Counted from the first letter of the whole stretch, positions 43,839 through 62,338 are shown. The stretch is DNA of 62,911 bases, filler included, from 4 parts of 4 records of this genome joined end to end with filler, not necessarily neighbours in it; one strand, 5' to 3'. Notes: generated from the sequence alone by a model not told the origin. Program-made: numbers and translations.

Positions 43839-43938
43839 NNNNNNNNNNNNNNNNNNNNNNNNNNNNNNNNNNNNNNNNNNNNTTAATTAATTAANNNNNN
43901 NNNNNNNNNNNNNNNNNNNNNNNNNNNNNNNNNNNNNN
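43839..43938. other. Artificial contig linker
   Basis: N-run / TTAATTAATTAA / N-run. Confidence 0.99.
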
Positions 43939-44406: not shown

Positions 44407-45780
44407 TTAGTTTTTCGGCAGATACAAGGCCCAATTTGCGGCATCTCGCCCTGCGTCCATAATCGCCTCCGAAAATGTCGGATGCACCCGAATCGTATGA
44501 GCCAGTTCATCAACGGTGCACTCGAGCTGCAGCGCCATAACCGCCTCGCCCACAAGTTCCGTGGCGTTGCCCCCTACGATGTGTATTCCCAGGATATCTC
44601 CGGTTTCTGAATCCGAAACAATCTTAACAGCGCCGTCAACTTCTCCGCGACTCATGGCAAGCCCGTTTATGGCGTAGGGAAAGCTTCCTGCGTCAGTCTC
44701 AATGCCCTGCTCCTCAGCCTCTTCCTCGGATAGTCCCACTGCCCCTACCTGGGGAAACGTCCAAATCCCTCGAGGTACCAAATGAAAAGGAAAAGCATTG
44801 CCGTGATCCATAGCATTCTCCGCGGCAGTGACTCCCATGGCCGAAGCCGCGTGACTATTCATCCACCCACCGGTGAGATCCCCGATGGCATAAATGCCAG
44901 AAACTGAGGACTGAAGCGTATCATCCACCCGGACACTGCCGTCTTCATTAAGGCGAACGCCAACATTGTTCAGGCCCAAGCCATTCGTTTTGGGCATGCG
45001 CGTTGCGACCAATACCTTTTCCACCTCGACAACAGGTTCATTTGCACCGGACAATTTTGCTTCAATGCCCTTTTCGGTCTTGCTTAAGGACTCTATCGAG
45101 ACGCGTGTTACCACCTCGATACCCTGTTCTCGGAAGGCTTGGGCAACCCGCTGACTCGTCTCACCGTCTTCTTTTGGGAGAATTCGGCGATGATTTGTCG
45201 CTAATAGGACTTTACTCCCAAATATATTGAGCAAAGCAGCCATTTCCACCTCAATTGGGTTAGCATCACCCCATACCAATATCGAAGAGGGCACTTCAGT
45301 CATATCCAGTACCTGATCAGTGGTCATGCCCCCCTCTTGAAGTCCCGGAATCTCAGGTGTCACCAACGAGCTGCCGGTTGAGAGGATGATTTTGTTGGTC
45401 GTCAAAGTACGACCATCCACATCCACTTCACGTGGATTTTTCAGCCCCGCGTTGCCTCTTATGAGTTCCACGTTGTTATTGCCCAGGAGTGCTTCCATGC
45501 CCATACGGATCTCTGCGGCCACACCGTTTTTCCGCTCCACAATCGTATCAAGTCTCAAAGTTTCGACAGAAGCATTTATACCAAAATCTCCCCCCTGACG
45601 GATCAAATTAAGTATGTAGGCAGCTCTCATCCAAACTTTTGAGGGAATACACCCTCGGTTTACGCACGTTCCACCGACATCACTTTTTTCAATGACGGCC
45701 ACTTTGCCTCCCAATTGAGACGCCCTAATGGCCGCCGCATATCCTCCTGGGCCACAACCAATCACAACAACATCGTACAT
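44407..45780 (-). CDS. lpdA: Dihydrolipoamide dehydrogenase (E3)
   Basis: GCGPGGY, GGTCVNRGCIPSK and HPTFSE; NAD-binding motif atypical. Confidence 0.92.
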   Translation of the reverse strand: MYDVVVIGCGPGGYAAAIRASQLGGKVAVIEKSDVGGTCVNRGCIPSKVWMRAAYILNLIRQGGDFGINASVETLRLDTIVERKNGVAAEIRMGMEALLGNNNVELIRGNAGLKNPREVDVDGRTLTTNKIILSTGSSLVTPEIPGLQEGGMTTDQVLDMTEVPSSILVWGDANPIEVEMAALLNIFGSKVLLATNHRRILPKEDGETSQRVAQAFREQGIEVVTRVSIESLSKTEKGIEAKLSGANEPVVEVEKVLVATRMPKTNGLGLNNVGVRLNEDGSVRVDDTLQSSVSGIYAIGDLTGGWMNSHAASAMGVTAAENAMDHGNAFPFHLVPRGIWTFPQVGAVGLSEEEAEEQGIETDAGSFPYAINGLAMSRGEVDGAVKIVSDSETGDILGIHIVGGNATELVGEAVMALQLECTVDELAHTIRVHPTFSEAIMDAGRDAANWALYLPKN

Positions 45781-45820
45781 GAGTTATACTCCTTTAAATG
45801 CCTAAAATCAGGGCAAGGGT

Positions 45821-47071
45821 TTACAGGTGAAGATATTCCGGCTGCTGTATCAGCTCCATCATCTTGGTATAGAACTTACCGATGGGCACACCATCCATCA
45901 CCCGATGATCAAAGGTAATACTCATGCTCATGATCGGCCTAAGCTGGATCTTCCCCTCAACATTCCAGGGTTTCTCAAATATACCGCCCGGTTGGACGAT
46001 CACCGATTCCGGTTGGTTCAGGACCGGCGTCGATACGGTCCAGCCGGGTGCAAATCCCCCGGTATTGGAAATTGTAATCGTGCCCCCGGTGACATCATCC
46101 AGCGTAAGCTTGCCTTCCCTGGCCCGGGCAATCAAATCTTTTATGCTCCGGCTGATTTCAATAAGAGATTTTTCGGCCGCATTTTTGACGACCGGTACAA
46201 TCAACCCGCTTTCATACTCACCGACATCAAGAGCTGCCGCCACTCCGACATTAATGTCTTCCCAAATCTTGATCTCATTGTCGACCAGCGAAGAATTGAT
46301 CAATGGCACATGTTTGACCGCCTTGACCAGAGCATAAAGCAGGAGGTCCGTAAACGTGATCCGTACGCCGATTTCGTCTTCTTTTTGCAGCAGCGACTTA
46401 CGCAACCGAATCATCTCGGTCATGTCTATTTCACCCATGTAACTTAGCTGAGCGGCAACTGATAAACTGCGATGCATGTGCTCGGCAATGGCCTGGCGCA
46501 TCCCCTCAAGCGGAATGGTCGCTTTGACTCGCTTACCGTCTACGACTTCGCCGGTGAAGACCTCTTCAGTGGGCACGGCTTCGGCAACACCGGTCTCCAC
46601 TGCTTTTAATACATCTTTTCTGACAACCCTCCCGCCCGGACCGGTGCCGACTATTTTGGTAAAGTCCAAATTGTGCTTGATCGCTAATTTTTTGGCCGCC
46701 GGCGAGATTTTCATTTTACCTTTCTTCCTTGATCCGGCCGATGCTGCAACCGACGCCGCGGCAGTTGGAATCACCTCCGCTGCCTCCGTCGCCTCTATTG
46801 CCGGAAGCTTCGCCTGAATTTCAGAGAGCTCCTCCTTTGTTTCGGCAAGCCGGCCTGCCATTTCACCGACCGTTACAACATCTCCCTTCGATGTAAGAAT
46901 GCATAGAAACCCGGAGGCCGGCGCCTGTATTTCGTAAGTTACCTTTTCAGTCTCTATAACCAATACGACTTCATCTTTTTCTACCCAATCGCCTTCGATA
47001 GCTCTCCATTCTGCGATCTTCACTTCTTTCATTGTCATTCCCAATTTAGGAATGAATATTCCATAAGCCAC
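45821..47071 (-). CDS. Dihydrolipoamide acyltransferase (E2)
   Basis: Lipoyl domain (PKLGMTM..IETEKV), E3-binding ISPAAKKLA..GTGPGGRV and catalytic DHRVMDG. GTG start follows GGAGGGA. Confidence 0.94.
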   Translation of the reverse strand: MAYGIFIPKLGMTMKEVKIAEWRAIEGDWVEKDEVVLVIETEKVTYEIQAPASGFLCILTSKGDVVTVGEMAGRLAETKEELSEIQAKLPAIEATEAAEVIPTAAASVAASAGSRKKGKMKISPAAKKLAIKHNLDFTKIVGTGPGGRVVRKDVLKAVETGVAEAVPTEEVFTGEVVDGKRVKATIPLEGMRQAIAEHMHRSLSVAAQLSYMGEIDMTEMIRLRKSLLQKEDEIGVRITFTDLLLYALVKAVKHVPLINSSLVDNEIKIWEDINVGVAAALDVGEYESGLIVPVVKNAAEKSLIEISRSIKDLIARAREGKLTLDDVTGGTITISNTGGFAPGWTVSTPVLNQPESVIVQPGGIFEKPWNVEGKIQLRPIMSMSITFDHRVMDGVPIGKFYTKMMELIQQPEYLHL

Positions 47072-47168
47072 CTGTTCATCTCCCTCCAAAAAATTAGCGT
47101 ATACAGAAAAACAATCAAATAATAGACCAGTTCTTGAGGAATTGTTCTCCCCCTCACTTTATTGCCCG

Positions 47169-48131
47169 TCAGTCCATCATTGACTTTATGGCATGGAAAA
47201 CTTGCTCGGGTTGTGGAATGCAATATTGCTCCATTACCGCGCCGGCAATGGGCATATTGGCTGCACATACCCGCTTCACAGGTGCATCGAGATCATCAAA
47301 CGCCTTCTCCATAATCTGCATACCGATTTCGGCGCCAACTCCGCATCGCTCTGTATCCTCATCTACAACAACCACTCGTCCGGTTTTACGGACTGAAGCG
47401 ATGATGGTATCGATATCGAGGGGTTCCAAGGTACAGGGATCGATCACCTCCACACTCATTTCACCGGCAAGCTTTTCAGCCGCTTGCAGCGCCAAATGCA
47501 CCATATAAGATGTGGCCACCACCGTAACGTCGGTTCCCTCTTTTTTGATGTCGGCCTTCCCGAATGGAATGGTATACTCCTCCATGGGAATATGTTGTTT
47601 CATGCCCATCATTTGTTTATGGAAGAAATACAAAACCGGATTGTTGTCACGGATGGCCGTTTTCATCAAACCCTTCGCATCATACGGCGTGCTGGGCAGC
47701 GCAAGCTTCAGTCCCGGATTGTTTAGAACCAGCGCCGAAGGGATGTGTGAATGCTCGGGGCCTGTTCCGAATCCGCCGCCGGCAACGCCCATAAAAACGC
47801 AAGGCGCATTCACCTTTCCCGCCTGCGCATAGTATTGCTGGGCTGCCTTAAATAAGATCTCGTCCGCAGCACAATATACAAAATCTGCAAAACTGAGATC
47901 GCAAACAGGTCGATAACCGGCTGCCGCCGCTCCAACGGCAGCGCCGCAAATGGCCAGTTCGCTGAGCGGCGCATCCATCACGCGTTCTGGGCCAAACTTC
48001 CGAACCAGACCTTTAGTGGCATTGAATGGTCCCTCCTGAACATTTTCACCGATGACAAAAACAGTTTCATCTCTTTCCATTTCTTCAGCTATGGCTTCGC
48101 TGATTGCCTGCCAATACATTAATTCCCTCAT
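47169..48131 (-). CDS. ThDP-dependent dehydrogenase E1 beta subunit (AcoB/PdhB-like)
   Basis: AIAEEMERD, DAPLSE, PSTPYDAKGL and SVRKTGRVVVVDE. Confidence 0.93.
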   Translation of the reverse strand: MRELMYWQAISEAIAEEMERDETVFVIGENVQEGPFNATKGLVRKFGPERVMDAPLSELAICGAAVGAAAAGYRPVCDLSFADFVYCAADEILFKAAQQYYAQAGKVNAPCVFMGVAGGGFGTGPEHSHIPSALVLNNPGLKLALPSTPYDAKGLMKTAIRDNNPVLYFFHKQMMGMKQHIPMEEYTIPFGKADIKKEGTDVTVVATSYMVHLALQAAEKLAGEMSVEVIDPCTLEPLDIDTIIASVRKTGRVVVVDEDTERCGVGAEIGMQIMEKAFDDLDAPVKRVCAANMPIAGAVMEQYCIPQPEQVFHAIKSMMD

Positions 48132-48146
48132 TCTGCTCCCTCCCTT

Positions 48147-49127
48147 TTAGGCCGCATAAATTATCTTATTGAGGATAGAAGGTTCCGGATATGGGCTTTC
48201 TATGGCAAAGCGTTCGGCTTCCGCAACTTCAGCGTCCGCCTCGCTATTTATTTCATCCGCTTTTTGTTGAGTTAGAACACCGTCTTGCAACAGCTTCTCA
48301 TAAAATAATGCAACCGGATCCCGTTTTTTCCATTCCTCAATTTTCTCTTGGGATCGAGGTTCATAATGGCACACATCCGGTCTTCCTTCCGAATGGGACC
48401 GGAAACGAAAGGTCTTGCACTCGATCAATGAAGGGCCTTCCCCCGCCCGCGCTCTGTCCACTGCCGCTTGCACGGCTTCGTACACAGCAATCACATCCAT
48501 TCCGTCGACGACAACACCCGGCATGTTGTAAGCTTGAGCCATCTCCGCGATATCTTCTATTGCACAAGAATCGCAGGTCGGCGTAAACCATGCCATTTGA
48601 TTGTTTTCGACGACCCAGATGACGGGAAGCTTCCAGCATGCGGCCATGTTCATGGATTCATGGGCCTGACCACGCTGCATACCGCCATCACCCGTAAAGC
48701 AAATCGCTACCTGGCCCTCCCCTCTTTTTTGGGCGGCCAAGGCATAGCCTACGGAAAGGGGAAAGCAGGAACCGATAGTGCCACCCAAGGCCAGAACGCC
48801 ATAATCAGCATCTGCAAGATGCAAACCGGTAATACCCCCGCCCCAACCGGTAGCTTTACCCAAGTGTTCGGCAATGCAGGGTTTTGGATCCAACCCCTTG
48901 CTTAAGGCATAGGGAAGTCCGTGACCGCGATGGTGGACGTATAAATAGTCGTCTTTGCGAAGGAATGTGCAACCACCGACGCCAATGGCCTCATGGCCTT
49001 CACAACTATGGTAAAAGGTCTTGAGTTTGCCTTCTTGAGCCATTTTTATGTTCAATCTGTCGAACTTGCGGGCACGTACAAGGTTCCGATAGAGCTTCAG
49101 CAGTTCATCTTTTTTCAGTTTTTCCAT
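48147..49127 (-). CDS. ThDP-dependent dehydrogenase E1 alpha subunit (AcoA/PdhA-like)
   Basis: GHEA, HRGHG, GDG..ENN ThDP motif and TFRFRSHSEG. Confidence 0.93.
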   Translation of the reverse strand: MEKLKKDELLKLYRNLVRARKFDRLNIKMAQEGKLKTFYHSCEGHEAIGVGGCTFLRKDDYLYVHHRGHGLPYALSKGLDPKPCIAEHLGKATGWGGGITGLHLADADYGVLALGGTIGSCFPLSVGYALAAQKRGEGQVAICFTGDGGMQRGQAHESMNMAACWKLPVIWVVENNQMAWFTPTCDSCAIEDIAEMAQAYNMPGVVVDGMDVIAVYEAVQAAVDRARAGEGPSLIECKTFRFRSHSEGRPDVCHYEPRSQEKIEEWKKRDPVALFYEKLLQDGVLTQQKADEINSEADAEVAEAERFAIESPYPEPSILNKIIYAA

Positions 49128-49204
49128 TATTACCTCCAACACCGGGGATTAAGATCTAAAAGGCGGATATTGCCCGACATGGTCTCCTGTTTCTCAAATA
49201 GCAA

Positions 49205-49684
49205 CTATGCCCGGTTCGTCTTTCGTTGAATAAGCTCAATTAAGACCCCGCCGATATCCGTTGTATCCAGGTAAGCAGCAGCGGAATCGCCGGTTTCGCT
49301 CCGGCCGGATAAAATGGATTTGATTCCCATCTTCTCATACCGCTCCAACCTCTCTTGAATATCATCTACGTCAAAGCCCAGATGGTGGAGCCCTTCGCCG
49401 CGGCTGTCCAAAAAATCATAATAAATGGATTTTTTGCTGATCGGCTGGATCAGTTCCATCTCAATCGTCCCCAAAGAGCAAAACGCCATCCCCATTTTAA
49501 AATCATAATCTACGGGTTTTCCGTATTGGACAAGGTCAACATATTTTAGATTTGGCTTAGCAAATGGACCGATTCCTAAAGCCTCATAATAGGCTATCGT
49601 TTTTTCTAAATCTTGCACTACCACGCCTATTTGGCTGACACTCGGGAGATCCAAGGTTTGCTTTATTTGGCTGTTAAGTTCCAT
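49205..49684 (-). CDS. VOC-family protein (methylmalonyl-CoA epimerase/glyoxalase-like)
   Basis: QIGVVV.D, EMELIQP, GEGLHHLGFDV and IELIQ. Confidence 0.88.
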   Translation of the reverse strand: MELNSQIKQTLDLPSVSQIGVVVQDLEKTIAYYEALGIGPFAKPNLKYVDLVQYGKPVDYDFKMGMAFCSLGTIEMELIQPISKKSIYYDFLDSRGEGLHHLGFDVDDIQERLERYEKMGIKSILSGRSETGDSAAAYLDTTDIGGVLIELIQRKTNRA

Positions 49685-49749
49685 ATCGTTTCTCCTCTCT
49701 TTTTAAATCACTAATTTTCTTCTCCATTCCTTCCATGTTTTAAGTATTC

Positions 49750-50730
49750 CTACGCTTCTTCTTCGAGTCCCAAAAGCATAGCAGGATTCTTCCTGGCCAT
49801 TATATCAATCGCGTCTTCGGATATTCCACATGCCATCAGAATTCTGATGTAAACGCGTAACGCCTCAACAGGAGCATTACTGATGATTTGCCCATAATCT
49901 GTAGAAAGAGTACAGTGTTCTGGTCCTATTTTCATTATTGCATCTGCGATTTCATGTGTATTTTTATTAATGGTGAGGGGATGTAATTCAGCCGCACAAT
50001 AATTTAAATATACCCCCAGTTCTGCCATTTTCATTTGATTCTCAAAAGAGACATCAACACTATACATATGAGGATGATCTAAGATAATTTTCTTAACCCC
50101 TGCAATCTTAGCGGCTTCAACAACGGCAAACATCTCTTCGATGCCTAAATGTCCCAGGGAAAGAATGATGTCTGCTTCTGCAACCATATGGACAATATCG
50201 ACAACTTCAGGAATCAACTTGTCTCCATCAAGCACATAGTCGCCCATCGCTGGCGCACTTTCCTTCCCAATGGATCCAACATGATGAACACCCTTGGTTA
50301 TATGGCTTCTGGCCGTCGTTGTTGGAAGCCAAACACATTTAGCACCAAATTTTATCGCCAGCATAATTGCGTATGGATTTACCCCTCCATAAAGAGGGCC
50401 CATACAAATACCACCAAACAGCCGAACGGGACGTAATTCTCGCTCTTTGGCCCATGCATCGATAGCCTCCTGTGCTATTTTAGCCGGTTCCATTGTTGAA
50501 CAATGATATGATTTCAAAACAATGGCCCTCTGACCCGCATCAGAAGCCTGTTGGGCCAACGGTATAACCCTTATTCGCCCTGATGTCGCGTGAATATGAA
50601 GGTCACTGGTCCCTGCCACAATTTTCACATCCTCCTGTGGCGACCATGGGCTGTCAAGCGTTTCGTCTAAATATTTGTATACTTCCAGTTGGTATTGCTT
50701 TTCTTCTATGGGATCTCCGTTTGCAACCAT
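49750..50730 (-). CDS. TIM-barrel metallohydrolase of unknown substrate (DUF6282-like)
   Basis: DLHIH, AIVLKS, VWLPT, LGHL, DHP, LSTDYGQ and NPAMLLG. Confidence 0.8.
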   Translation of the reverse strand: MVANGDPIEEKQYQLEVYKYLDETLDSPWSPQEDVKIVAGTSDLHIHATSGRIRVIPLAQQASDAGQRAIVLKSYHCSTMEPAKIAQEAIDAWAKERELRPVRLFGGICMGPLYGGVNPYAIMLAIKFGAKCVWLPTTTARSHITKGVHHVGSIGKESAPAMGDYVLDGDKLIPEVVDIVHMVAEADIILSLGHLGIEEMFAVVEAAKIAGVKKIILDHPHMYSVDVSFENQMKMAELGVYLNYCAAELHPLTINKNTHEIADAIMKIGPEHCTLSTDYGQIISNAPVEALRVYIRILMACGISEDAIDIMARKNPAMLLGLEEEA

Positions 50731-50907
50731 TTTATTCTCCTTTCTTTAGTTAACCCCCTGATCTCCATGATCAACCAAACTCATCCGTAAATGTTTGATA
50801 ACTCTTATTTTCGGATAGCCTTCTACTATATCATTCTGTAATATTCCGTCTGGCTTTCTTTTGATAATTTTGTTAGCGATGTCTCTCAGAAAATGAATAC
50901 ATGTTTA

Positions 50908-52227
50908 TCAATTGCTCATTACCATCGGGAGCCAGAGTGAAATTTTGGGAAAAGCAATCAAAATCGCAATCGTAAGGAATTCGAGAACCAGAAAAGGCAT
51001 AGTTCCCCTAAAAACATCTTCTAGAGAAATCGTTTCAGGCGATACCGCTTTAATGACATATACATTGATACCAACGGGCGGTGTGATCATGCCCAATTCG
51101 TTGAATTTGACCAATAAAACCCCGAACCATATTGGATCATACCCGAGCGCGCCAATCACAGGGAAGATGACAGGTAGGGTGACCAACATCATCGAAATCG
51201 TGTCAACAAACATACCAAGTATAAAATATATGGCAATAATCAGTACCAGGACGACAATACGGGGAACAGACCATGCGACAATCGTCTCAGCAAACCAAGA
51301 CGGAATTCCGGCAATTGTAAGCGTAAAAGAAAAGATGCTAGCGCCGATCACCAGAAAAAACAGCATGCTCGATACCGATACTGTTTCGCGGAAGGCTTCC
51401 AGAATGTTTGGCAAAGCCTTCCGCCCCTGGAATAAACCAAACAATAAGGCGACAAAAGCGCCGATTCCAGCGGCTTCCGAAGGTGTAAACGCACCTGAGT
51501 AAATACCTCCCATGATAATCCCTGCCAGGATGAGAATACCCCATATTAGCCTGGTAGATATGACTTTTTCACGCCACGTGGTCTTTTGTCCACTGGGAGC
51601 TAGTTTGGGATTAATTCGGGCTTTGATGATTATGAAAAAAGAGAAAATGAGAAGCGTCAGCAATCCGGGAACAATGCCTGCTAACAGCAAATCTGCAATT
51701 GACGTTTCAGTTACGATCCCATACAGAACGAAAATGACACTGGGTGGAATCATAATCCCAACCAAAGCCCCAGAAGCGACCGTTCCCGTTGCGAACTTTT
51801 TTTCGTAGCCAGCCTCTAACATCTCGGGCAAGGCAATACGCCCCATGGTACCGGCAGTGGCCACACTGGAGCCTGCACAGGCTGCAAACAAACCGCACGC
51901 CCCCATTGTGGCCACGCCTAATCCTCCAGGCAACCAACTCAGCCAAGTAGAAGCCGTCCGATAGGCATTTTTGCTAATGCCAGCGGCAAAAGACAGGTGA
52001 CCCATTAAGATAAACAGCGGCACCGGTAGTAACGACCAGTTGGCCACTTTGGAATACGGAATGGTTTTTAAGGCGGTAAGCATAATACTCGTATCGCCGA
52101 TATACAATAGTCCAACTACCGCTGTAACCATGAGGGCGATGGCAATGGGTATCCGTAAGCAAATTAGAAAGAGCAACCCCATAACCATCACAGCACCGAA
52201 AACTGGGGGAGAAACCATATCAATCAC
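50908..52227 (-). CDS. dctM: TRAP transporter large permease
   Basis: PLFILMG, GSSVAT, IPPS, FTPSEA, DPIWFG and TPPVG. Confidence 0.94.
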   Translation of the reverse strand: MIDMVSPPVFGAVMVMGLLFLICLRIPIAIALMVTAVVGLLYIGDTSIMLTALKTIPYSKVANWSLLPVPLFILMGHLSFAAGISKNAYRTASTWLSWLPGGLGVATMGACGLFAACAGSSVATAGTMGRIALPEMLEAGYEKKFATGTVASGALVGIMIPPSVIFVLYGIVTETSIADLLLAGIVPGLLTLLIFSFFIIIKARINPKLAPSGQKTTWREKVISTRLIWGILILAGIIMGGIYSGAFTPSEAAGIGAFVALLFGLFQGRKALPNILEAFRETVSVSSMLFFLVIGASIFSFTLTIAGIPSWFAETIVAWSVPRIVVLVLIIAIYFILGMFVDTISMMLVTLPVIFPVIGALGYDPIWFGVLLVKFNELGMITPPVGINVYVIKAVSPETISLEDVFRGTMPFLVLEFLTIAILIAFPKISLWLPMVMSN

Positions 52228-52733
52228 GCCTCCTTTTGTCCTTTATTCCAGGCATTAACGGCGTCGTGAACAATTTCGAACAAAGACACCGCGCAAAAAA
52301 CAACCACTCCGATCGCCAGACAGTATCTTGCCGGCCAAACGGGAATTTGTCGCGTCCCGGCCCAGGTTACTTCACCGGCTTGGTACTGGGACCATGCGCT
52401 GCTGATGCTGGCGTATGCTAAAATTAGTAGGCAGGCTGTCGTAAGAGATTTCGTAAAAAGTTGCAGCACGATCTGTATGCGTGGCGGGATTTTATTAAAT
52501 ATAAATTCAACTTTTACATGGATGTCTGTGGTCTCAGCCCATGCGAGTCCCAGAAAGGCAATGAGGACCATTAACATTTCACATATTTCAATGCTGCCCT
52601 CAACTCCCTTTCCGATTAAAAAGCGTGCACCAACATCGGCTGTTGTCAGAACAACAATGCCAAACGCTGAAACCATGCCGATAATGATAAGCGTGTAGGC
52701 AAGGGTTCTGATTTTAGCTGCCAATTTGTCCAC
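52224..52733 (-). CDS. dctQ: TRAP transporter small permease
   Basis: Four TM segments, DVGARF and HVKVEF; between dctP and dctM. Confidence 0.9.
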   Translation of the reverse strand: MDKLAAKIRTLAYTLIIIGMVSAFGIVVLTTADVGARFLIGKGVEGSIEICEMLMVLIAFLGLAWAETTDIHVKVEFIFNKIPPRIQIVLQLFTKSLTTACLLILAYASISSAWSQYQAGEVTWAGTRQIPVWPARYCLAIGVVVFCAVSLFEIVHDAVNAWNKGQKEA

Positions 52734-52836
52734 GTGACTTACACCCCTCTTTGATGAAACAGGCCCTGAAGTATTTGATCAACAAAATATTTTGGAGATC
52801 ATGCCAAATGTCCCTCCACAATTCACCTGTATATTG

Positions 52837-53931: not shown

Positions 53932-54149
53932 GCTGTTAATTTTATCCTCCTTTAGACTTTTTAGTTAATGTTATTCGATAGTCATCCCTTAAACTCACAA
54001 TTAACTTTATAGCTCTAACAAAACATCGAAGTTTAGCTATTGAACAGTATGAAGTCGTTTTAACTAAGAGAGAGCGAAAAAAATTAGTTACTCAGCAACC
54101 TTGAAGTCCAGAAATTCAGTTCAGGTGTCCAAAGAAACCCTATTTTAGT

Positions 54150-54196
54150 TGTATAGCTTACTTATGATTCACCGACAATGACGGAAACCCGTCATT
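54150..54196 (-). promoter_or_regulatory. Operator copy 1 plus promoter of the dctP-lpdA operon
   Basis: AATGACGG-AAAC-CCGTCATT (54177-54196); on the minus strand it runs into TTGTCG-N17-TATACA. Confidence 0.82.
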
Positions 54197-54414
54197 TTTG
54201 CATTGTTATTGGTGATATTTGGAAGTTTAATATTGGTGACGAACCAAATCCTGTTCCCGCTGAAAGAATGAACGATAGGTACCTGATGGATTAACAGCCT
54301 TGGTTGCGAGGCTAAAGATTTAAGTTCGTAACGTTGGGGTATAAGGGTCCGTACACTTTAAAAATATGAAGGCTCTACTTTGTTGTCGACGAAGTAACGA
54401 AGTACTCCTTTTGG

Positions 54415-55167
54415 TTACGTAAGCCTTTCAATGACCTTGGTGCCAATACCTGCCAAAATTCCTCCGTCCACAGGAATTGCGGCGCCTGTGATATAGGCAG
54501 TTTCCGGGGCGGCCAAAAAATGGTAGACGCCGACAATATCTTCTATTTCCCCGATCCTTCCGAGAGGTGCCAGCACTTTCACCATTTCGATTTCCGGGCC
54601 TGGATTTTTTGCGAGCATTTCAGTAAGAATGCTGCCGGGACAGACCGCATTAACCCGGATACCACGGTCTCCTAATTCAATTGCTGCCGTCTTGGTCAGA
54701 CTGATGATGGCAGCCTTGCCGGCTGAATATGGTCCATGGCCCGGTACGCTAATCTGGCCCGCTATAGACGCAGTATTGATGATCGCCCCCCCGTCACGCA
54801 TGTATCGTGGGCCATGTTTGATTCCGTGGTAAACGCCTTTAAAATTGATATCAAGGGTACGATTCAAATCTTCCATCTTTTCATCGACGAGCATCCGACC
54901 GGTGTTCCCCGCACCGGCATTATTGATGATAACATCGATAGGGCCGTATCGGGCATGCACTTCCTCCAGTACCTTTTGAACTTCATTCTCTATGGCCACA
55001 TCAGCTGAAAAGGCCACCGCACCAATTTCCTTGGCAACGGCGGTGCCATCACGGCGTCCGACAATAGACACCTCAGCCCCGGCTGTCACGAAACGCGCCC
55101 CTACCGCCCGGCCGATGCCGGCCGTACCTCCGCAAATTACGGTTTTCATCCCATTGAGAGCAAACAT
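54415..55167 (-). CDS. SDR-family oxidoreductase
   Basis: GGTAGIG, NNAG, YSAGK and IRVNAVCPG. Confidence 0.94.
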   Translation of the reverse strand: MFALNGMKTVICGGTAGIGRAVGARFVTAGAEVSIVGRRDGTAVAKEIGAVAFSADVAIENEVQKVLEEVHARYGPIDVIINNAGAGNTGRMLVDEKMEDLNRTLDINFKGVYHGIKHGPRYMRDGGAIINTASIAGQISVPGHGPYSAGKAAIISLTKTAAIELGDRGIRVNAVCPGSILTEMLAKNPGPEIEMVKVLAPLGRIGEIEDIVGVYHFLAAPETAYITGAAIPVDGGILAGIGTKVIERLT

Positions 55168-55186
55168 GCATCGATCTACTTTTTTT

Positions 55187-55890
55187 CTAAATAGACGCCA
55201 TTACTTCTTGGATACTTTTTTCAAGGACATCAAATATCTCATCCATATCACTTTCGGTAACGATAAGGGGAGGTCCAACAGCGATCCAGTGGGTGCTGGC
55301 CCTGAGTAGAAGTCCGTTTTTGAGACACGCCTTGAATATCTTTTTTCCAATACCAATCTCTTCAGAAAAATGTTCCTTGGTCTTTTTGTCCTGAACGAAT
55401 TCAGCAGCAACCATAAGTCCTTTGCCTCCAGCCCTTTCAAGGTAGTACTTTTGTGACTCTAACATGCTGAATCTATGTGACACATTGATTTACCTGTCAG
55501 CAACGCCGTGCAAATGCCTTGCAGAAAACATCGATAATGCGGTCTCTTCCCTACCCACTAAGGCATTATCGCGGTAGGGATATGACGGTTTTGAAGCGAA
55601 TGAAAAAGGTTAAATTAACATCCCCCGAAAATATGCCAAATAAAACCATCAGTTAGGAAAGGCAAGTACTACCTTGAAAGGGATGGTCCTTTGCCTCTAA
55701 TGTCACCGATTATTCCAAAACGCTCATCCAGCTTCTTGTATTTGTCTTTAACATAATCCTCCATACGCTTTGTATTACCGGGCAAGTCTTGTTCAATAAG
55801 CTCTTTAATAGCAGCAATGCCTGCAGCAGCTGAAAGCCCGTTGTAGGTAAAAGTGTACCCGTCAATAATTGGATTGACTCCCTTTGATTC
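55187..55890 (-). pseudogene. Class III aminotransferase remnant (C-terminal third), interrupted by a MITE
   Basis: Removing 55429-55685 and one TSD copy restores GYTFTYNGLSAAAGIAAIKEL..FGIIGDIRGKG|LMVAAEFVQDK..GPPLIV. The N-terminal part, including the PLP lysine, is missing. Confidence 0.88.
55429..55685. mobile_element. 257-bp MITE (IS4 family, IS231-like ends)
   Basis: 22-bp TIRs CA(G/T)CCCTTTCAAGGTAGTACTT at 55429-55450 and 55664-55685; exact 12-bp TSD GTCCTTTGCCTC at 55417-55428 and 55686-55697; no transposase. Confidence 0.93.
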
Positions 55891-55996
55891 AAGTAAGACT
55901 GCAGCCTTGCGCAGGTGTTACGCCACTCTCATTCCCCTATGCAACAATGGAAAGAGGGGTAAAATGTGGCAAAAACGGTGTCCGGCTTAATGGCCC

Positions 55997-57442
55997 TTAC
56001 TCCTGTGCCTTGGCTTCAGCAAAGGCGGCATAAAAGCTCTCGGTTAACTGTGTGAGTGCTTGGCTGTATGGTAGGTGAAAGCAGTTTGCAAAGACGTTAT
56101 CATCAGCAGATTCCATAACAGTTTTGGTATGAGAAAAGTTGACGAAGCCTTCAAACCCTGAGTGACACCCTATACCGCTATTGCCACAGCCGCCAAACGG
56201 TGCGTTTGCATGAACCGTGTGCATCGCTATGCCATTAACGCAAAAGCCGCCCGAAATTGTCCCTTTGATCACCTTATCAGCCACCGCCTTATCTTTGGTG
56301 TAGACATGGGCCGCTAGTGGGCGTTCGTGGGTGTTGATATAGTTCATGGCCTCGTCTAAGGTTTTATACGTCTTGATCGGTAAAATGGGCCCGAAAGTTT
56401 CTTCCTGCATCACAAGCATATTTTCATCCGGGTTCACAATCAGCGTCATTGGAAACTGGCGCAGCTCCGGGTTCGGCGCTTCATCATGGGTGAAGATAAC
56501 GTCTGCGCCACCGGTCCGAGCGTCTTCAATGTACGATAATAACCGATCATAGTGCCGCGCATTGATAATGCCGGTCACTTCCGGATTACCGACAAATTGG
56601 GGATACGCATTTTTAAGAATTTTTGTGGCTATTGTTACAAACTGGTCAACTTTATTCTCAGGCAGCAGAACATAATCCGGACTGGTACACACCTGACCAC
56701 TTTTAACCATTTTAATAGCCAGGATGTCCCCGATCGCTTTCTCATCAATGCTGTCTTCGGTAAAAATTGTGGGGTTTTTTCCTCCCAATTCAAGCGTTAC
56801 CGGGGTCAGATTTTCACTGGCTGCCCTCATAACATGCCGAGCCACTGCAGAGTTGCCGGTATACATCAAATGGTTCCATGGCATAGCCGCAAAAGCCTTT
56901 GCCAGTTCAACATCTCCGGTAACCACAGCCAAAACCTCCGGTGAAAAGTACTCGGCCACCGCTTCCCGCATGAGGTTGGACGTGGCCGGGGAACTTTCTG
57001 ACGCTTTGGCAATAACCCGATTTCCGGCGGCCAGCATATCAACTACCGGTACTAACAGGCATTCCACGGGGAAATTCCAGGGGGCCAGGTTCCCGATAAC
57101 GCCGACCGGCTGATGCATCACGTACAACTCGGACGAGCCATGAACCGCCGGGTCAACCTCTCTCACCTGTGGCGCCATCCATTGCGGCAGCTGCGATCGA
57201 TAATACATTGATCTGGCAATAACAGCCCCGGGCTCAAGCAAATCCGAAACGACCTTGAGGTGATTACCAAAATCGTCATTGATGGCCTCCGCTATTCTAG
57301 CGCGGTAGGCAAGCAACATATTTTCCAGCGTGATCAGTCTTTCGGCCCGTTCTTCATAAGACGGATAAATGTTTTTAAAAAAAGCCTCTACCTGTTGATC
57401 AAAAAGTCTTTTTAACTCTTCTACGCTTGTGTACTCAGACAT
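55997..57442 (-). CDS. Aldehyde dehydrogenase (class 3 / coniferyl aldehyde dehydrogenase-like)
   Basis: PWNFP, YTGN, LELGGKNP, SGQVCTSPDY, EETFGP and PFGG.G.SG.G. Confidence 0.93.
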   Translation of the reverse strand: MSEYTSVEELKRLFDQQVEAFFKNIYPSYEERAERLITLENMLLAYRARIAEAINDDFGNHLKVVSDLLEPGAVIARSMYYRSQLPQWMAPQVREVDPAVHGSSELYVMHQPVGVIGNLAPWNFPVECLLVPVVDMLAAGNRVIAKASESSPATSNLMREAVAEYFSPEVLAVVTGDVELAKAFAAMPWNHLMYTGNSAVARHVMRAASENLTPVTLELGGKNPTIFTEDSIDEKAIGDILAIKMVKSGQVCTSPDYVLLPENKVDQFVTIATKILKNAYPQFVGNPEVTGIINARHYDRLLSYIEDARTGGADVIFTHDEAPNPELRQFPMTLIVNPDENMLVMQEETFGPILPIKTYKTLDEAMNYINTHERPLAAHVYTKDKAVADKVIKGTISGGFCVNGIAMHTVHANAPFGGCGNSGIGCHSGFEGFVNFSHTKTVMESADDNVFANCFHLPYSQALTQLTESFYAAFAEAKAQE

Positions 57443-57489
57443 AATGATATCTCCTTGTCAAATTATACAATGTATGCGTATAGATCCAT

Positions 57490-57733
57490 CGCCTGTTTCT
57501 CCTAATCCCAACTTCGGCAGTTGTAAGCAATTTTAAAGGGCTTTTTAAACCACTTGATATTATACATAGCGGCCCGGCCGGAAGATCACAGGGCATCTTG
57601 AAGGTCGATTTAGCCGCTTCATTTTCCACGCCTTAGACGATTTTGGCACAATCCCTTTTGGCGTTGTTTTTGCCCTGAATAACCCTTATTGTTTACTCAC
57701 CACTGTCGAACGCAAGCGGAGACTGGCATCATC
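57490..57733 (-). pseudogene. Possible degraded TctC/Bug substrate-binding protein remnant
   Basis: RBS GGAGGT-ATG near 57730, then broken frames reading VVSKQ*GLFRAKTTPKGIVPKSSKA/VENEAAKSTFK, resembling the Bug C-terminal GLFAPKGTP..IV..L..A motif. Confidence 0.35.
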
Positions 57734-57785
57734 ACCTCCCTTCTTTGGCATAGCTTGTTAAAAAGCTGCTACACCTGCGTGACAT

Positions 57786-57809
57786 TGTCAATGACGGAAA
57801 TCCGTCATT
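57786..57809 (-). promoter_or_regulatory. Operator copy 2 plus -35 of the ALDH-SDR unit
   Basis: AATGACGG-AAAT-CCGTCATT (57790-57809), overlapping minus-strand TTGACA (57791-57786). Confidence 0.82.
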
Positions 57810-57892
57810 TTCAGTCAAGTACAGTAGAGGATTATTAAAATTTCTAGAAAGGGAGGTAGCATGGAAAGGAAACCTTAATAGTGTATTTTTGA

Positions 57893-59029
57893 CTATCTAT
57901 TAGGCCAGTACAGCGGAGAAATCAGATTTAAAACCCGATGCAGCACGCTGGTGCGGTTTCTAACTTGTAGTTTGGTATAAATAGTCCGGAGATGGTTTTC
58001 CACCGTAAGTACGCTAATGAAAAGACGAGCTCCTATCTCGGTGTTTTTCAACCCCAGAAAAAGCAAGCTAATTACCTCAAGCTCGCGCTTGCTCAATCCC
58101 ATTCGCTGCAACGGTTCGGAATGCGATAAAAATGACTCATGGGGTAAAAAGCTGATCAAAAACATGGGCGGATCATCCTTCTGATTCAAGGTCAAGAGAT
58201 TTATGGATAATCGATTCCGTCCTTTGTCCTGAGAAATTTCGATCGTTTGAAAGTCCTCATCAAAAATCCTTTCATTTGTATCCATCAACTGGCGGCAACG
58301 CTCGGTGAGGCCGGAAGGTAACTGAAAATCCCCAGGAGGTTCGCTGGAGCCTCTCCCCTGCCATCCGGAGAACACCTTGAAAAAACCATCGGAAACATAA
58401 ACAGGCTCCAAGTCTTGGTCCAATATGAGCAACGCTTGGCATGGCATTTGTGTCATTAAGATATCTTTTAGTTTATCTTGGATTTTTAGGTGCTTAGTAA
58501 TAATAACGTTCTGAACGGCTTGGGTAAGATGGGGAGCGATTAATTCCGCCTGGATTCGGTCCTTCAGCGAAAATGGCTTTTGTTTTGGTGATCGATGTAT
58601 AAAAACGATACCCAAAAATTGTGATCCCAACTTCAAGCGGATCTGCATTTCGTAATGAATGAAAAGCTGTTGCATGTAATCCTTATAATATTCGGTAGAT
58701 ACCAAATCATCTAAAGAAATAAAATCGGTGGTCGTTGCCACTGTGGGCTCAGGTTTCAGACCTGACCTGATTGGATCCATAGGATGAAAGTAATCGGCAT
58801 ATCGACATATTTCTTCATTGCTTATTCCATGGTAGATACCTCCATGCATGTCCGCGAGTTTCCCTTCTTTAATCAGACAAAATCCTCCTGAAATGCATTC
58901 GAAATATTGTATTAACCATTGAAGCACTTCTTTCCCTAATTCATAAAAATCGCTGAATCGTAAAACCCTCTGAGACAAAGAAAGGATGTCCTTTAACTCT
59001 TTTTTACTGAGATTTATTGGATCGTCCAT
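57893..59029 (-). CDS. LuxR-type HTH regulator with N-terminal GAF/PAS-like sensor
   Basis: LSKRELEVISLLFLGLKNTEIGARLFISVLTVENHLRTIYTKLQVRNR; N-terminal Y.DYFHPMDP..TEYYKDYM sensor region; no receiver domain. Confidence 0.92.
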   Translation of the reverse strand: MDDPINLSKKELKDILSLSQRVLRFSDFYELGKEVLQWLIQYFECISGGFCLIKEGKLADMHGGIYHGISNEEICRYADYFHPMDPIRSGLKPEPTVATTTDFISLDDLVSTEYYKDYMQQLFIHYEMQIRLKLGSQFLGIVFIHRSPKQKPFSLKDRIQAELIAPHLTQAVQNVIITKHLKIQDKLKDILMTQMPCQALLILDQDLEPVYVSDGFFKVFSGWQGRGSSEPPGDFQLPSGLTERCRQLMDTNERIFDEDFQTIEISQDKGRNRLSINLLTLNQKDDPPMFLISFLPHESFLSHSEPLQRMGLSKRELEVISLLFLGLKNTEIGARLFISVLTVENHLRTIYTKLQVRNRTSVLHRVLNLISPLYWPNR

Positions 59030-59171
59030 TTCACGCCCTCCTTTGCCTGAAAGCTTAAGGAATTACCTATCTCGCCGTCAATAGTAAAATCGAAAGTTTA
59101 TCGCATTTTGTTCAATTTAAGCTTTTTTAAACAGCATATTTTAAACTATACAAATGTTTGGATGAACACGA

Positions 59172-59217
59172 AATGACGGGTTCCCGTCATTGACATTGAT
59201 AACCAGCCCATTATAAT
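59172..59217 (+). promoter_or_regulatory. Operator copy 3 plus sigma70 promoter of the aminotransferase pair
   Basis: AATGACGG-GTTC-CCGTCATT (59172-59191), overlapping TTGACA (59190-59195)-N16-TATAAT (59212-59217). Confidence 0.88.
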
Positions 59218-59298
59218 CTTTTGGACGACAATAGGTGCATTAAAACACTTTCAATTTTATTTTATTTAACCTGTTTAAGCTCTACTGAAAGGGAAACC

Positions 59299-60618
59299 AT
59301 GTTTGACCACTCTAAGTCAATTATACACTATCGAGATGCCCGCCAATATCTTGCCGGAGGCGTAGGCAGTGATGTGCGGTTACTCCCGGGGATGGAGCCT
59401 ATCTGCTTTGAGAGAGGATCCGGATCACGTATGTATGATGTCGATGGCAATGAATACATTGACTACATTTTGGCTTTAGGCCCTTTGATACTAGGGCACT
59501 GCCCTTCACAGATCGTGGCAGCAGTCAAAAAACAGGTTGAATTGGGGTCCATTTTCGGGGCCGCCGCCAGCGGCGAAGAACATCTGGCAAAGATGGTATG
59601 TGGATGTCTACCATCCGTTGACTTGGTTAGTTTTACAAACAGCGCTTCCGAGGCCGTTCACATGGCACTTCGACTTGCGCGCGCCTTTAACGGCAAGACC
59701 AAGGTGCTGAAATTCGAGGGCTGCTATCATGGGTGGATTGAAGATGTAATGTACAGCATTCACCCCGAGTCGCTCAATGTGATGGGCACGGAAAACAATC
59801 CACAGCCTGTTCCGGAAAGCATAGGGCTGTCAAGGAACACGCATTCAAATGTACTCATTGCCCCCTGGAACCAGCCGGATGTGTTGAAAAAGATTTTTCG
59901 CCGTCATGGGCACGAAATTGCAGCCTTAATCCTAGAGCCGATTCCGGCCAATAACGGCGTCATGCCGCCCCATGCCGGGTTTTTGGAATTTTTGCGCGAG
60001 CTGACATCATTACATGAAAGCCTTCTCGTCTTTGATGAGACCATCACCGGCTTCAGGGTTGATCTGGGGGGCGCCCAAGCCTATTACGACGTTCATCCCG
60101 ATCTTACCGTCTTTGGTAAAGCCGTCGGAGGGGGATATCCCATCGCCGGATTTGGCGGACGCAAAGAAGTGATGGACTTAATCACCAAGAGAGAGGTCAA
60201 TCGCATGGGAACATACAACTCCAATTCTTTGTGTGTTGCTGCCACAATAGCCGTTCTGGAGGAGCTCTACCGTGAAAATGGCGCGGCCATCAAACACATG
60301 ATCGCCATGGGTGAGAGGCTAATTGAAGGAATGAAGAGATTGTTTGCAGATCACGGTATTCCCTTAACCATTCAAGGCATGGGATCACTGTTCAGCACGT
60401 TTTTCACGCAAGAGCCCATCGATACCTATCGTGACACGTTTAAAATTAATACAGAGCTCTATCAACGATTCTGGACCACACTCCTGGGAAAGGGGGTGCG
60501 TATCATTTACTCAGCCCGGGCTACATGGTTGCTTTCAACGGCACATACAAAAGCAGACATAGACGAGACGCTTCAAAAAGTGTCCGATACCCTTAAGGAA
60601 CTCAAAAAAAATAAATAA
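59299..60618 (+). CDS. Class III PLP enzyme, glutamate-1-semialdehyde aminomutase-like
   Basis: YDVDGNEYIDY..GPLILGH, KFEGCYHG, FDETITGFR and FGKAVGGGYP. Confidence 0.92.
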   Translation: MFDHSKSIIHYRDARQYLAGGVGSDVRLLPGMEPICFERGSGSRMYDVDGNEYIDYILALGPLILGHCPSQIVAAVKKQVELGSIFGAAASGEEHLAKMVCGCLPSVDLVSFTNSASEAVHMALRLARAFNGKTKVLKFEGCYHGWIEDVMYSIHPESLNVMGTENNPQPVPESIGLSRNTHSNVLIAPWNQPDVLKKIFRRHGHEIAALILEPIPANNGVMPPHAGFLEFLRELTSLHESLLVFDETITGFRVDLGGAQAYYDVHPDLTVFGKAVGGGYPIAGFGGRKEVMDLITKREVNRMGTYNSNSLCVAATIAVLEELYRENGAAIKHMIAMGERLIEGMKRLFADHGIPLTIQGMGSLFSTFFTQEPIDTYRDTFKINTELYQRFWTTLLGKGVRIIYSARATWLLSTAHTKADIDETLQKVSDTLKELKKNK

Positions 60619-60966
60619 AAAAATCGACTATTTGCCAGGACATAAAAAGGGAAGCCATATGAAGAAATTCAGAGATGGATAACGTTTTGATCCGGTGTTG
60701 CTTAGAGGAGATTAGCCCGCTTCTGGAAATTGAGCTTTTTACTGTGTATTGTCTGAAAATCGATTTGAAAAAAATAACGATTTCCCGTTATTGACACCCA
60801 ATGAACAGGCCAGTCTCCATGCATATTTGGACAGCTTACAAAGATGCTCCGGACTTCGGCGGATTGATGTGCCCCGAAGTCAGGGCTTTGCTAAAGGGCA
60901 TCGCCGGGTTAGGCGAAATTATCGGGTGCGATATAACGGCCTGATGCTGAAAGGAGTACTAAAATA

Positions 60967-62325
60967 ATGGAAGCTGACAAATTGAATGAATTGAGGGACA
61001 AGGTTTATAAGGCCTATGCAGACAAGACACCAAACACTATGCGATTATTCGAAAGAGCGAAGAGTAGCATGGTAGGCGGGATTACCTCAAGTAAGAGGTA
61101 CTTCCCTCCCTATCCACTCTTTATGGTCCGCGGTCAGGGCGACAGGATTTATGATGTCGACGGCAATGAATACATCGACTGCTTCCTCAATGCAGGGCCG
61201 CTCCTTCTAGGACACAACCACCCCGAAGTTATGGATGTGGTCAGGTCCGAACTCGACCGAGGGCTGTTGATTCTGCATCTGGATATTACCGTCGAATTTA
61301 CGGAATTATTGAAAGAACTCTACCCTTGCGCCGAGAGAGTACGGCTGGCCAACACCGGTACAGAGGCCTGTCTTTTCGCGGCGAGGATAGCCCGCTCATA
61401 CACGGGGAAAAAAAAACTGATCAAGTTCCACGGCCATTTCCATGGCCTGGCTGACCAATTCTGCGTAGGTGGATACGGCACAAACGGTGGGATTGATTCG
61501 AACGGCGTTACCGCAGCTATGATCGAGGATATGGTAATGCTTTCCTACGGCGACATCGAAGCAGCCAAAAAGAAGCTGGATGAGAATGATGACATCGCTG
61601 GTGTGATCCTAGACCCCCAAATGCACGCGGGAGGTATCTGGCCGGCTTCGGTGGAATACCTAAAAGAACTCCGTATGTTGACCGAGGAAAAGGGTGTGGT
61701 TCTCATATTTGATGAGGTCATCACAGGTTTCCGCCTAGCACCTGGTGGCGCCCAGGAGTATTTTGGGGTATCTCCCGATCTAATCATCCTATCGAAGGCC
61801 ATCGCAGCCGGCGGCAAACTGGCCGTGGTTGCCGGCAAAGAGGAAGTCATGTCCGTCTTGACGCCCCAGGGAATGGAAAATGCACCCCGGAAAGCGGTTC
61901 TACAGGGTGGTACATTTATTGACGGCACAATTGGAGTCGCTGCTGGTATAGCCGCCCTCAAGGTGTACAAACGACTCGGCAAACAGGGAGCGTATGGGAA
62001 GTTGTTCGCCCGAGCCCAGAAACTGAGAAAAGGACTTGAAGAGGCTTTTGCTTACCGGAACATTCCATTCAAGATGAATCATCTTGGCCCGTCCCTTAAA
62101 ATGTTTTTTACCGAAAAACAGATTAGCTATGAATCCATGTGCAATCTGGACTACACTCTCCACGATCTCTTTTGTCTGAGCATGATTTCCGAAGGTATTT
62201 TCCTAACCCTACCGACTTTGCGATCCATCTACCTTTCGTTCATGCACACCGACGAAGATATAGACAAAATTATCGAAGTGGCTAACAAGTGTTTGGACAA
62301 ATACTGCTTCGCAGAATATGTCTGA
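60967..62325 (+). CDS. Second class III PLP enzyme, GSA aminomutase-like
   Basis: YDVDGNEYID..GPLLLGH, NTGTEA, KFHGHFHG, FDEVITGFR and LSKAIAAG. Confidence 0.92.
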   Translation: MEADKLNELRDKVYKAYADKTPNTMRLFERAKSSMVGGITSSKRYFPPYPLFMVRGQGDRIYDVDGNEYIDCFLNAGPLLLGHNHPEVMDVVRSELDRGLLILHLDITVEFTELLKELYPCAERVRLANTGTEACLFAARIARSYTGKKKLIKFHGHFHGLADQFCVGGYGTNGGIDSNGVTAAMIEDMVMLSYGDIEAAKKKLDENDDIAGVILDPQMHAGGIWPASVEYLKELRMLTEEKGVVLIFDEVITGFRLAPGGAQEYFGVSPDLIILSKAIAAGGKLAVVAGKEEVMSVLTPQGMENAPRKAVLQGGTFIDGTIGVAAGIAALKVYKRLGKQGAYGKLFARAQKLRKGLEEAFAYRNIPFKMNHLGPSLKMFFTEKQISYESMCNLDYTLHDLFCLSMISEGIFLTLPTLRSIYLSFMHTDEDIDKIIEVANKCLDKYCFAEYV

Positions 62326-62338
62326 GCGTACAGAAGAA

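Follow-up and report, generated by a model that had tools for sequence, protein, structure and literature searches.

What function unites the about 14 genes that lie under one common DNA switch between positions 44407 and 62325 of the DNA stretch analysed here? The whole stretch, hereafter the window, comprises 62,911 nt in four parts of four records that were joined with filler and are not necessarily neighbours; genes were called from a listing of open reading frames (ORFs) together with Pfam and NCBIfam scans of the window proteins. A first-pass annotation had proposed that these genes encode an undescribed anaerobic pathway for the catabolism of a nitrogen-containing compound, and every gene that it named was recovered in the two scans. 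The explanation favoured here, with moderate confidence, is that the genes would make up a catabolic regulon that is induced by its substrate, an organic anion bearing an amine. Directly observed are the gene families, a common operator with its geometry, a core that partly recurs in one related metagenomic locus (L001) and an aminotransferase motif that is not that of HemL. None of the parts is of a new kind, and their combination appears to match no described pathway that was found, as the first-pass annotation had also held; likewise, no mention of DUF6282, the family of the hydrolase encoded in the cluster, was found in the literature searched. There is also agreement that the substrate is not readable from the sequence; candidates that were considered are aromatic amino acids, 5-aminolevulinate, ectoine and beta-amino acids.

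Operator and regulator

An 18 bp palindrome, ATGACGG-N4-CCGTCAT, is present in exactly three perfect copies: upstream of dctP (54178–54195), upstream of the aldehyde dehydrogenase (ALDH) gene (57791–57808) and, on the plus strand, between luxR and the aminotransferase gene AT1 (59173–59190). With up to one mismatch allowed there are 3 matches in the window and 0 in any of 100 shuffles. Toward the respective gene the first copy is followed by TTGTCG and the second by TTGACA, and the third abuts a promoter (59190–59217) that matches the consensus at 12/12 positions (TTGACA-16-TATAAT). A fourth, degenerate copy with 3 mismatches lies upstream of a second aminotransferase gene, AT2 (60774–60791). 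It is not significant by count (5 matches at three or fewer mismatches against 2.9 expected); it has the same AAA...TTGACA flanks and the same orientation as the other three. Aligned toward the downstream gene, the four regions have the common sequence AAATGACGGnTTnCCGTCATTGACA, with TTGTCG in the dctP variant.

In all four copies the last base of the palindrome also opens a −35-like hexamer directed at the downstream gene. Because the −35 hexamer at AT1 belongs to a 12/12 consensus promoter, the palindrome centre is placed near −43, presumably the known position for class II activation by LuxR-type regulators. The −10 elements of the three other promoters are weak, which would be compatible with activation; the perfect AT1 promoter would be equally compatible with repression. 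Three units with a common operator had been described in the first-pass annotation. The three exact palindromes bear this out, but there are four promoters rather than three units, the fourth of them behind the degenerate copy before AT2.

The sole regulator gene in the cluster (57893–59029, minus strand) encodes a LuxR/GerE-family protein in which PF00196 covers residues 311–364 only, behind an N-terminal domain of ~300 aa. Searches with these N-terminal residues turned up neither a solved nor a named relative, and a protein atlas returned unnamed regulators only. The GerE domain alone was detected, without the preceding autoinducer-binding domain of LuxR-type quorum-sensing regulators, and the protein is best assigned by its sequence to the GerE/LuxR DNA-binding family only. 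A search of positions 43800–62911 against Rfam gave 0 matches, so the long leaders hold no known riboswitch or other known RNA element.

Gene content and proposed route

Unit 1, on the minus strand, consists of nine genes in the order dctP, dctQ, dctM, DUF6282, VOC, E1a, E1b, E2 and E3, with intergenic gaps of −4 to 177 nt. Unit 2, also on the minus strand, begins with the ALDH gene, continues with the remnant of an omega-aminotransferase gene and ends with a short-chain dehydrogenase/reductase (SDR) gene. The LuxR/GerE gene is divergent from AT1, and AT2 lies downstream of AT1, both on the plus strand. Thirteen genes other than the remnant have intact frames and full-length family matches; of the curated equivalog models, only that of E3 reached its cutoff.

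All three subunits of a DctPQM-type TRAP transporter are encoded in adjacent genes on the minus strand: the solute-binding subunit DctP, first in unit 1 (52837–53931; PF03480, 1.2e-39; NF037995, 94.8 against a cutoff of 50), and the membrane subunits DctQ (52224–52733; PF04290) and DctM (50908–52227; PF06808), whose genes share 4 nt. Among solved structures the closest to DctP is 4n6d (1.4e-37), followed by 4pgn/4nap. The VOC protein (49205–49684, minus; Glyoxalase_4, PF13669, 4.2e-19) is methylmalonyl-CoA epimerase- or glyoxalase-like and scores 63 bits in TIGR03081, whose cutoff is 115. In unit 2, the ALDH (55997–57442, minus; PF00171, 4.5e-77) has its best NCBIfam match in MdlD (NF045701) at 276 bits against 550, short of the mandelate/benzaldehyde branch, and the SDR oxidoreductase (54415–55167, minus; PF13561, 5.4e-58) is generic and reaches no NCBIfam cutoff.

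A route can be proposed from this content, although every chemical step, the order of the steps, the sense of regulation and the co-transcription of the E1–E3 genes with those upstream are inferred. The LuxR-family regulator would bind the palindrome, centred ~43 bp upstream of the start implied by the promoter hexamers, at four promoters, and would most likely activate them. The TRAP system would import the compound, and AT1 and AT2, acting as ordinary aminotransferases, would turn its amino groups into carbonyls. The SDR would oxidize a neighbouring hydroxyl and the ALDH an aldehyde, the DUF6282 protein, as a putative binuclear-metal enzyme, would open one bond (amide, lactam, lactone, ester or dicarbonyl), and the VOC protein would isomerize or epimerize one intermediate. 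Finally, in this genome, the thiamine diphosphate (ThDP)-dependent complex of the pyruvate dehydrogenase (PDH)/acetoin type may cleave a 2-oxo acid, acyloin or 1,2-dione to yield an acyl-CoA. An anaerobic lifestyle for such a pathway is plausible; the signs that bear on it are indirect, namely an aldehyde:ferredoxin oxidoreductase (AOR) in L001, a multihaem cytochrome in the window, Desulfobacterota-like relatives and a cluster in which no oxygenase family is represented.

The same gene content bears on whether the cluster might instead be biosynthetic, making for example an amino-containing natural product or solute. GSA-like (glutamate-1-semialdehyde aminomutase-like) aminotransferases do include biosynthetic enzymes, and an NCBIfam match to GntE reaches 393 bits, the cutoff being 525. 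However, the importer, the NAD-linked oxidative complex and the ALDH point to breakdown, and the family matches of the cluster include no gene for a synthetase, ligase or exporter, which makes biosynthesis highly improbable.

Aminotransferases

AT1 (59299–60618, plus; PF00202) and AT2 (60967–62325, plus; PF00202) are class III pyridoxal phosphate (PLP) enzymes of the GSA aminomutase-like branch, the latter a second divergent GSA-like member, and are 30 % identical to each other. The longer ORF of AT1, 59221–60618, opens with a TTG at 59221. Since the AT1 orthologues, at 436–450 aa, cover 94 % of this longer ORF, the ATG at 59299 is the more likely start.

HemL, the GSA aminomutase, is the best family match and the best solved relative of both enzymes. 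Aligned with four HemLs, the two enzymes retain the PLP lysine and the arginine of the N-terminal G-G-V-x-S-x-x-R. Neither enzyme, however, reaches the HemL equivalog model TIGR00713 (404.9 for AT1 and 340.5 for AT2 against 527.3); of the looser subfamily model NF000818 (cutoff 398), AT1 just passes at 406.2 and AT2 fails at 348.4. The C-terminal P-S-x-F-E of HemL is absent from AT1 (S-A-R-A-T-W), from AT2 (P-T-L-R-S-I) and from the GSA-like aminotransferase of L001 (P-P-R-G-R-W), and all three have an Arg in the stretch where the four HemLs have S-x-F-E; in AT2 this Arg stands at the place of the HemL Glu. AT1 and AT2 are also altered at the HemL motif G-T-L-S-G-N-P, and, unlike hemL, their genes lie in what would be a catabolic regulon. 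The Glu of the HemL motif is presumed to exclude keto acids. AT1 and AT2 are thus probably keto-acid-dependent transaminases rather than aminomutases. The pair of GSA-aminomutase-like PLP enzymes reported earlier therefore stands as two divergent genes of the HemL branch, but not as enzymes with the HemL motif or with scores at the HemL level.

The ‘dead’ class III aminotransferase of the first-pass annotation is a true remnant. About the C-terminal third of an omega-aminotransferase is left, in two reading frames (55187–55860, minus), as detected by tblastn with the corresponding L001 enzyme, to which it is most similar; it matches residues 266–323 of that enzyme at 67 % identity and residues 302–396 at 55 %, and the remnant ORF 55187–55483 covers PF00202 positions 329–402. 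The L001 gene itself has an in-frame TAG and TGA within its first 50 codons (L001 755–930), and the omega-aminotransferase therefore appears to have been lost in parallel at both loci.

These losses, together with the insertion sequence (IS) elements that flank both the window cluster and L001, could be taken as signs of a decaying or silent cluster whose pathway no longer works as a whole. The intact frames and full-length family matches of thirteen other genes and the exactness of three operator palindromes argue otherwise, and the loss of the same gene at both loci fits replacement by GSA-like enzymes better; decay is accordingly regarded as quite improbable.

Recurrence of the core

A metagenome scan for related loci returned L001, an 18 kb contig. 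Its gene order is VOC, omega-aminotransferase, ABC importer, DUF6282, GSA-like aminotransferase, SDR, AOR and IS elements. Identities to the window proteins are 50 % for VOC (L001:222–725), 58 % for DUF6282, 35 % for the GSA-like aminotransferase (to AT1) and 32 % for the SDR. The ABC importer is of the Peripla_BP_6 type and replaces the TRAP system, and the AOR, of the tungsten type, stands in place of the ALDH. The recurring core would thus comprise an uptake system, VOC, DUF6282, a GSA-like aminotransferase, an SDR and an aldehyde oxidizer, with the importer and the oxidizer apparently exchanged for analogues. Additionally, protein P0001 is identical to the L001 DUF6282, and it and P0022, an AT1 orthologue at 64 % identity, have the same sources and the same 29,807 bp largest contig listed. 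This suggests that the two lie together, with a true AT1 orthologue near an L001-type DUF6282.

Elsewhere, AT1 has an orthologue group at 51–78 % identity among 120 proteins listed. A scan of genome contigs with the AT1 orthologues gave at least 600 matches, and the 80 loci kept were all at HemL level (35–40 %), with 0 orthologues among them; the same kind of scan with the DUF6282 clade gave 75 pattern matches and 0 relatives. In a plasmid collection the best matches were 40.8 % for AT1 (128 records), 44 % for E1a (357 records), 36.7 % for DUF6282 (45 records) and 36 % for VOC (45 records), and no similar cluster was found there.

The DUF6282 hydrolase

The DUF6282 gene (49750–50730, minus) encodes a putative amidohydrolase-superfamily protein that matches PF19799 at 162.1 bits against 26.8, over profile positions 1–195 of 196. 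Residues H45, H47, K131, H194, H219 and D278 are invariant across 15 aligned DUF6282 sequences; they are taken to be metal ligands in the pattern of binuclear-metal amidohydrolases, in which a TIM barrel bears HxH, Lys, His, His and Asp at the ends of its strands. A confident AlphaFold2 model (pLDDT 84.5) returned top Foldseek matches that are all of the amidohydrolase superfamily at probability 1.0, but with template modelling scores of only ~0.5, and among which are decarboxylases, deacetylases, peptidases and lactonases. Solved structures, searched by profile, gave only weak phosphotriesterase-homology matches, and the protein atlas offered only the DUF6282 label. Since the fold matches are generic and the profile matches weak, the type of bond opened is not readable from them.

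The family is sizeable, with 2,140 representative clusters at E ≤0.001, and the window protein belongs to a rare clade. There are 14 relatives among 2,055 candidates, only two of them above 50 % identity (58 % and 53 %), and a search of 1.84 billion representatives gave one cluster at 54 %, four at 41–42 % and others at 35 % or slightly above. Among sampled genomes DUF6282 was found in 1 of 120, at 25 % identity.

The neighbours and fusions of more distant members offer some indication of role. Three of four contexts of relatives at 29–37 % identity adjoin organic-acid-type carriers or aldolases, with a TRAP permease or a MatC carrier among the neighbours, and single nitrogen-related genes are present in two of the four (RidA and an aminotransferase in one, a carbon-nitrogen hydrolase in another). 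Natural fusions occur in 3 of the 150 best DUF6282 representatives. P0264 is a tandem DUF6282. In P0310 the domain is fused to a TAXI-type TRAP binding protein and, together with the carrier neighbours, this appears to link DUF6282 to organic-acid uptake. P0366 is a fusion of a ThDP enzyme with DUF6282; its N-terminal 540 residues match cyclohexane-1,2-dione hydrolase (2pgn; hereafter CDH) at 1.8e-118 and 400 bits, with acetolactate synthase at 240 bits. As stated in a passage of PMC12247030, CDH cleaves a C–C bond of a cyclic 1,2-dione. P0366 is therefore a hint, as a single Rosetta-stone link, that DUF6282 may be tied to ThDP-dependent C–C cleavage, in a pairing as in the window.

A bolder version of the proposed route would build on this link. 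Transamination and dehydrogenation would lead to an acyloin or 1,2-dione, which the PDH-type complex would split into acyl-CoA and aldehyde, with DUF6282 and VOC preparing or resolving an intermediate. DUF6282 would then be a partner of ThDP-dependent acyloin/1,2-dione cleavage in a route not yet described that needs no oxygen and takes an amino-hydroxy carboxylate, possibly an alicyclic one, which is considered unlikely. A more specific version, with which the gene families are also compatible, is pantothenate breakdown with DUF6282 as the long-sought pantothenase; it is very improbable. The classical route for pantothenate breakdown includes dimethylmalate dehydrogenase, and the gene for this enzyme is missing from the cluster. 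According to a passage in PMC10393543, the protein identity of pantothenase was still unknown in 2023.

The dehydrogenase complex

The last four genes of unit 1, all on the minus strand and separated by gaps of 15–79 nt, were identified by Pfam as the subunits of a lipoamide-dependent ThDP dehydrogenase: E1 alpha (48147–49142), E1 beta (47169–48131), E2 (45821–47089) and E3 (44407–45780). E1 alpha scores 272.6 against 393.85 (TIGR03182), E1 beta 312.5 against 321 and E2 at best 261.6 against 449; all three are under every NCBIfam cutoff and do not qualify as PDH; only E3 is above its own (TIGR01350, 416.8 against 408.8).

Close homologues of E1a are many, at up to 93 % identity, and include proteins of a Desulfuromonadales metagenome-assembled genome (70 %), Desulfosarcina ovata (65 %) and Geomonas (63 %). 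They are named pyruvate or acetoin dehydrogenase E1 alpha, and one close homologue is named acetoin:DCPIP oxidoreductase (JGI). E1a is also present at 51–70 % identity in 9 of 401 sampled genomes of one phylum. In five other loci the E1a-E1b-E2 module stands among unrelated genes. The closest E1a/E1b orthologues (70 % and 83 %) are at locus L109 (G418:C230:1–12000), in the order Mo-oxidoreductase, SDR, M24 hydrolase, E1a, E1b, E2, Mo-oxidoreductase; the proteins of this cluster gave family matches far under the cutoffs and no pathway name. On a Sphingobium plasmid an M24 gene likewise directly precedes E1a.

Plain acetoin/2,3-butanediol catabolism, by an AcoABCL-like complex and a butanediol dehydrogenase with unrelated neighbours, had been set against its own proposal by the first-pass annotation. 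The E1a homologue named for acetoin would fit, as would the sub-threshold match of the SDR to butanediol dehydrogenase/acetoin reductase models (170 bits against 270). However, the complex and a TRAP anion importer have one promoter region in common, two aminotransferase genes and the ALDH gene lie behind the same operator (three aminotransferase genes in all, with the remnant), and the only regulator is LuxR-type. Moreover, E2 matches the AcoC-type model NF011457 over the lipoyl domain only, at 56.3 bits against 307. Regular-type E2s occur in some aco operons, so acyloin cleavage would still be compatible with this last comparison. Taken as a whole, plain acetoin catabolism is extremely improbable.

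The base composition raises a different alternative. The G+C content of the cluster is 0.469 against 0.515 for the remaining window, with VOC, DUF6282, DctP and LuxR genes at 0.42–0.45, and a fragment of DUF4372 (transposase N-terminal) lies immediately beside AT2 (62352–62681, minus); together these features of the sequence hint at acquisition. A step in G+C falls exactly at the VOC/E1a junction. The locus could thus be composite, an acquired TRAP-DUF6282-VOC module with regulator and aminotransferases having landed upstream of an older, general host operon for a pyruvate/acetoin-type E1ab/E2/E3 complex. On this account the complex would handle only a common end product (e.g. pyruvate) or lie outside the pathway.

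Since the G+C step coincides with a spread of E1a without the module and with contexts of other genes, the arrangement fits a module inserted before an older operon. The contrast between close, numerous E1a homologues and the rarity of DUF6282 and AT1, the lack of the complex in L001 and the flanking transposase fragment are in keeping with this, and a weak indication is added by the largest contigs listed for E1a homologues, none of which coincide with those of AT1 orthologues. On the other side, the VOC–E1a gap is only 62 nt and without a predicted terminator, E1a, E1b and E2 miss the PDH cutoffs, a natural DUF6282-ThDP enzyme fusion exists, and the sphingomonad megaplasmid of Novosphingobium PP1Y also carries a VOC gene and SDR genes no more than 12 kb from E1ab. 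Three of these points (the terminator-free gap, the missed cutoffs and the PP1Y arrangement) would argue for a functional adjacency of VOC and E1a. A composite locus is considered a possible but minority explanation and the main rival of the regulon proposed here.

Weighing the regulon

Several observations count against a single conserved regulon for an amine-bearing organic anion. L001 is the only related locus found by the metagenome scan, its 18 kb contain no E1/E2/E3 genes and it has 0 copies of the operator palindrome. One pathway gene, that of the omega-aminotransferase, is a pseudogene. AT1 orthologues were found in 0 of 120, 0 of 401 and 0 of 9 sampled genomes. In the five genomes with the best E1a orthologues (59–70 %), DUF6282 was found in 0 of 5 at E ≤1e-10, and the AT1 query gave HemL-level matches only (36–39 %) in 4 of 5 and nothing at E ≤1e-80 in 1 of 5. 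The G+C content of the E1a–E3 genes is 0.50–0.52, like that of the rest of the window. Lastly, the aminotransferase-based module of the window cluster is present in 0 of 4 contexts of the distant DUF6282 relatives.

The observations of the first-pass annotation are confirmed and its interpretation is supported in part, a genuine regulon of apparently inducible and catabolic character being indicated. Two of its points are not supported. The complex, which it placed in the pathway, is not co-conserved with the rest: L001 lacks it, no DUF6282 was found in the five E1a-orthologue genomes searched, and its G+C content differs from that of the neighbouring genes. For DUF6282, the proposed amide or ring hydrolysis amounts to a guess, given the generic fold matches and the four distant contexts. 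Co-conservation itself holds in part, the core recurring in L001 without the E1/E2/E3 complex.

Comparison with described systems

The complex is like AcoABCL and the heterotetrameric-E1 PDH in its subunits (E1 alpha and beta, E3, and an E2 that has a lipoyl and an E3-binding domain) and in having a ThDP site. An SDR gene is likewise nearby, and acyloin cleavage would give acyl-CoA and an aldehyde, for which the window ALDH would be available. It differs from them in the sub-cutoff scores of E1a, E1b and E2, in an E2 that is not AcoC-type, in its position behind a TRAP importer, a hydrolase and VOC, and in a LuxR operator held in common with aminotransferases.

BqdLMS is taken to resemble PDH subunits. 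It sets a precedent for such unusual cleavage. The CDH route of Azoarcus sp. and BqdLMS of Aromatoleum anaerobium follow the same logic as that proposed here, the oxygen-independent C–C cleavage of a dicarbonyl made by a dehydrogenase; according to a passage in PMC10084136, bqdLMS encodes the ring-cleaving (hydroxybenzoquinone) enzyme of anaerobic resorcinol degradation. A DUF6282 relative, P0366, carries a CDH-like domain. However, there is no CDH-like gene in the window, which has an E1ab/E2/E3 complex instead.

Modules for omega-amino acids and diamines (gamma-aminobutyrate, beta-alanine, ectoine/diaminobutyrate and 5-aminovalerate) likewise combine a class III aminotransferase, an ALDH and uptake. 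In contrast to these, no GabT, DoeD or similar model reaches its cutoff for the window enzymes, the ALDH is nearest to the MdlD type rather than to semialdehyde dehydrogenases, and the window adds genes for DUF6282, VOC, an SDR and a ThDP complex.

Other features of the window

Outside the cluster, an 800 aa fusion of pyridine-nucleotide disulfide oxidoreductase, rhodanese, TusA and DsrE-like domains (12048–14450, plus) is a multidomain enzyme of sulfur trafficking. An 838 aa PIF1-like helicase with HRDC and HTH_40 domains is encoded at 38998–41514 (minus), and a 511 aa multihaem cytochrome c at 31808–33343 (minus) adjoins a DsbA-like gene. A galactose operon (630–5075, minus) comprises aldose 1-epimerase, a LacI regulator, galactokinase and Gal-1-P uridylyltransferase.

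Implications

Without its substrate, the locus is one of many uncharacterized catabolic clusters. As a regulon, it provides a clean set of operator, regulator and binding protein for ligand screening, and could give a name to a new substrate of anoxic sediments. Testable leads for DUF6282, a sizeable family without known function, also come from the locus, from its single relative and from two natural fusions. Members of this family appear to act on organic acids that have been imported, in some lineages beside ThDP-dependent C–C cleavage.

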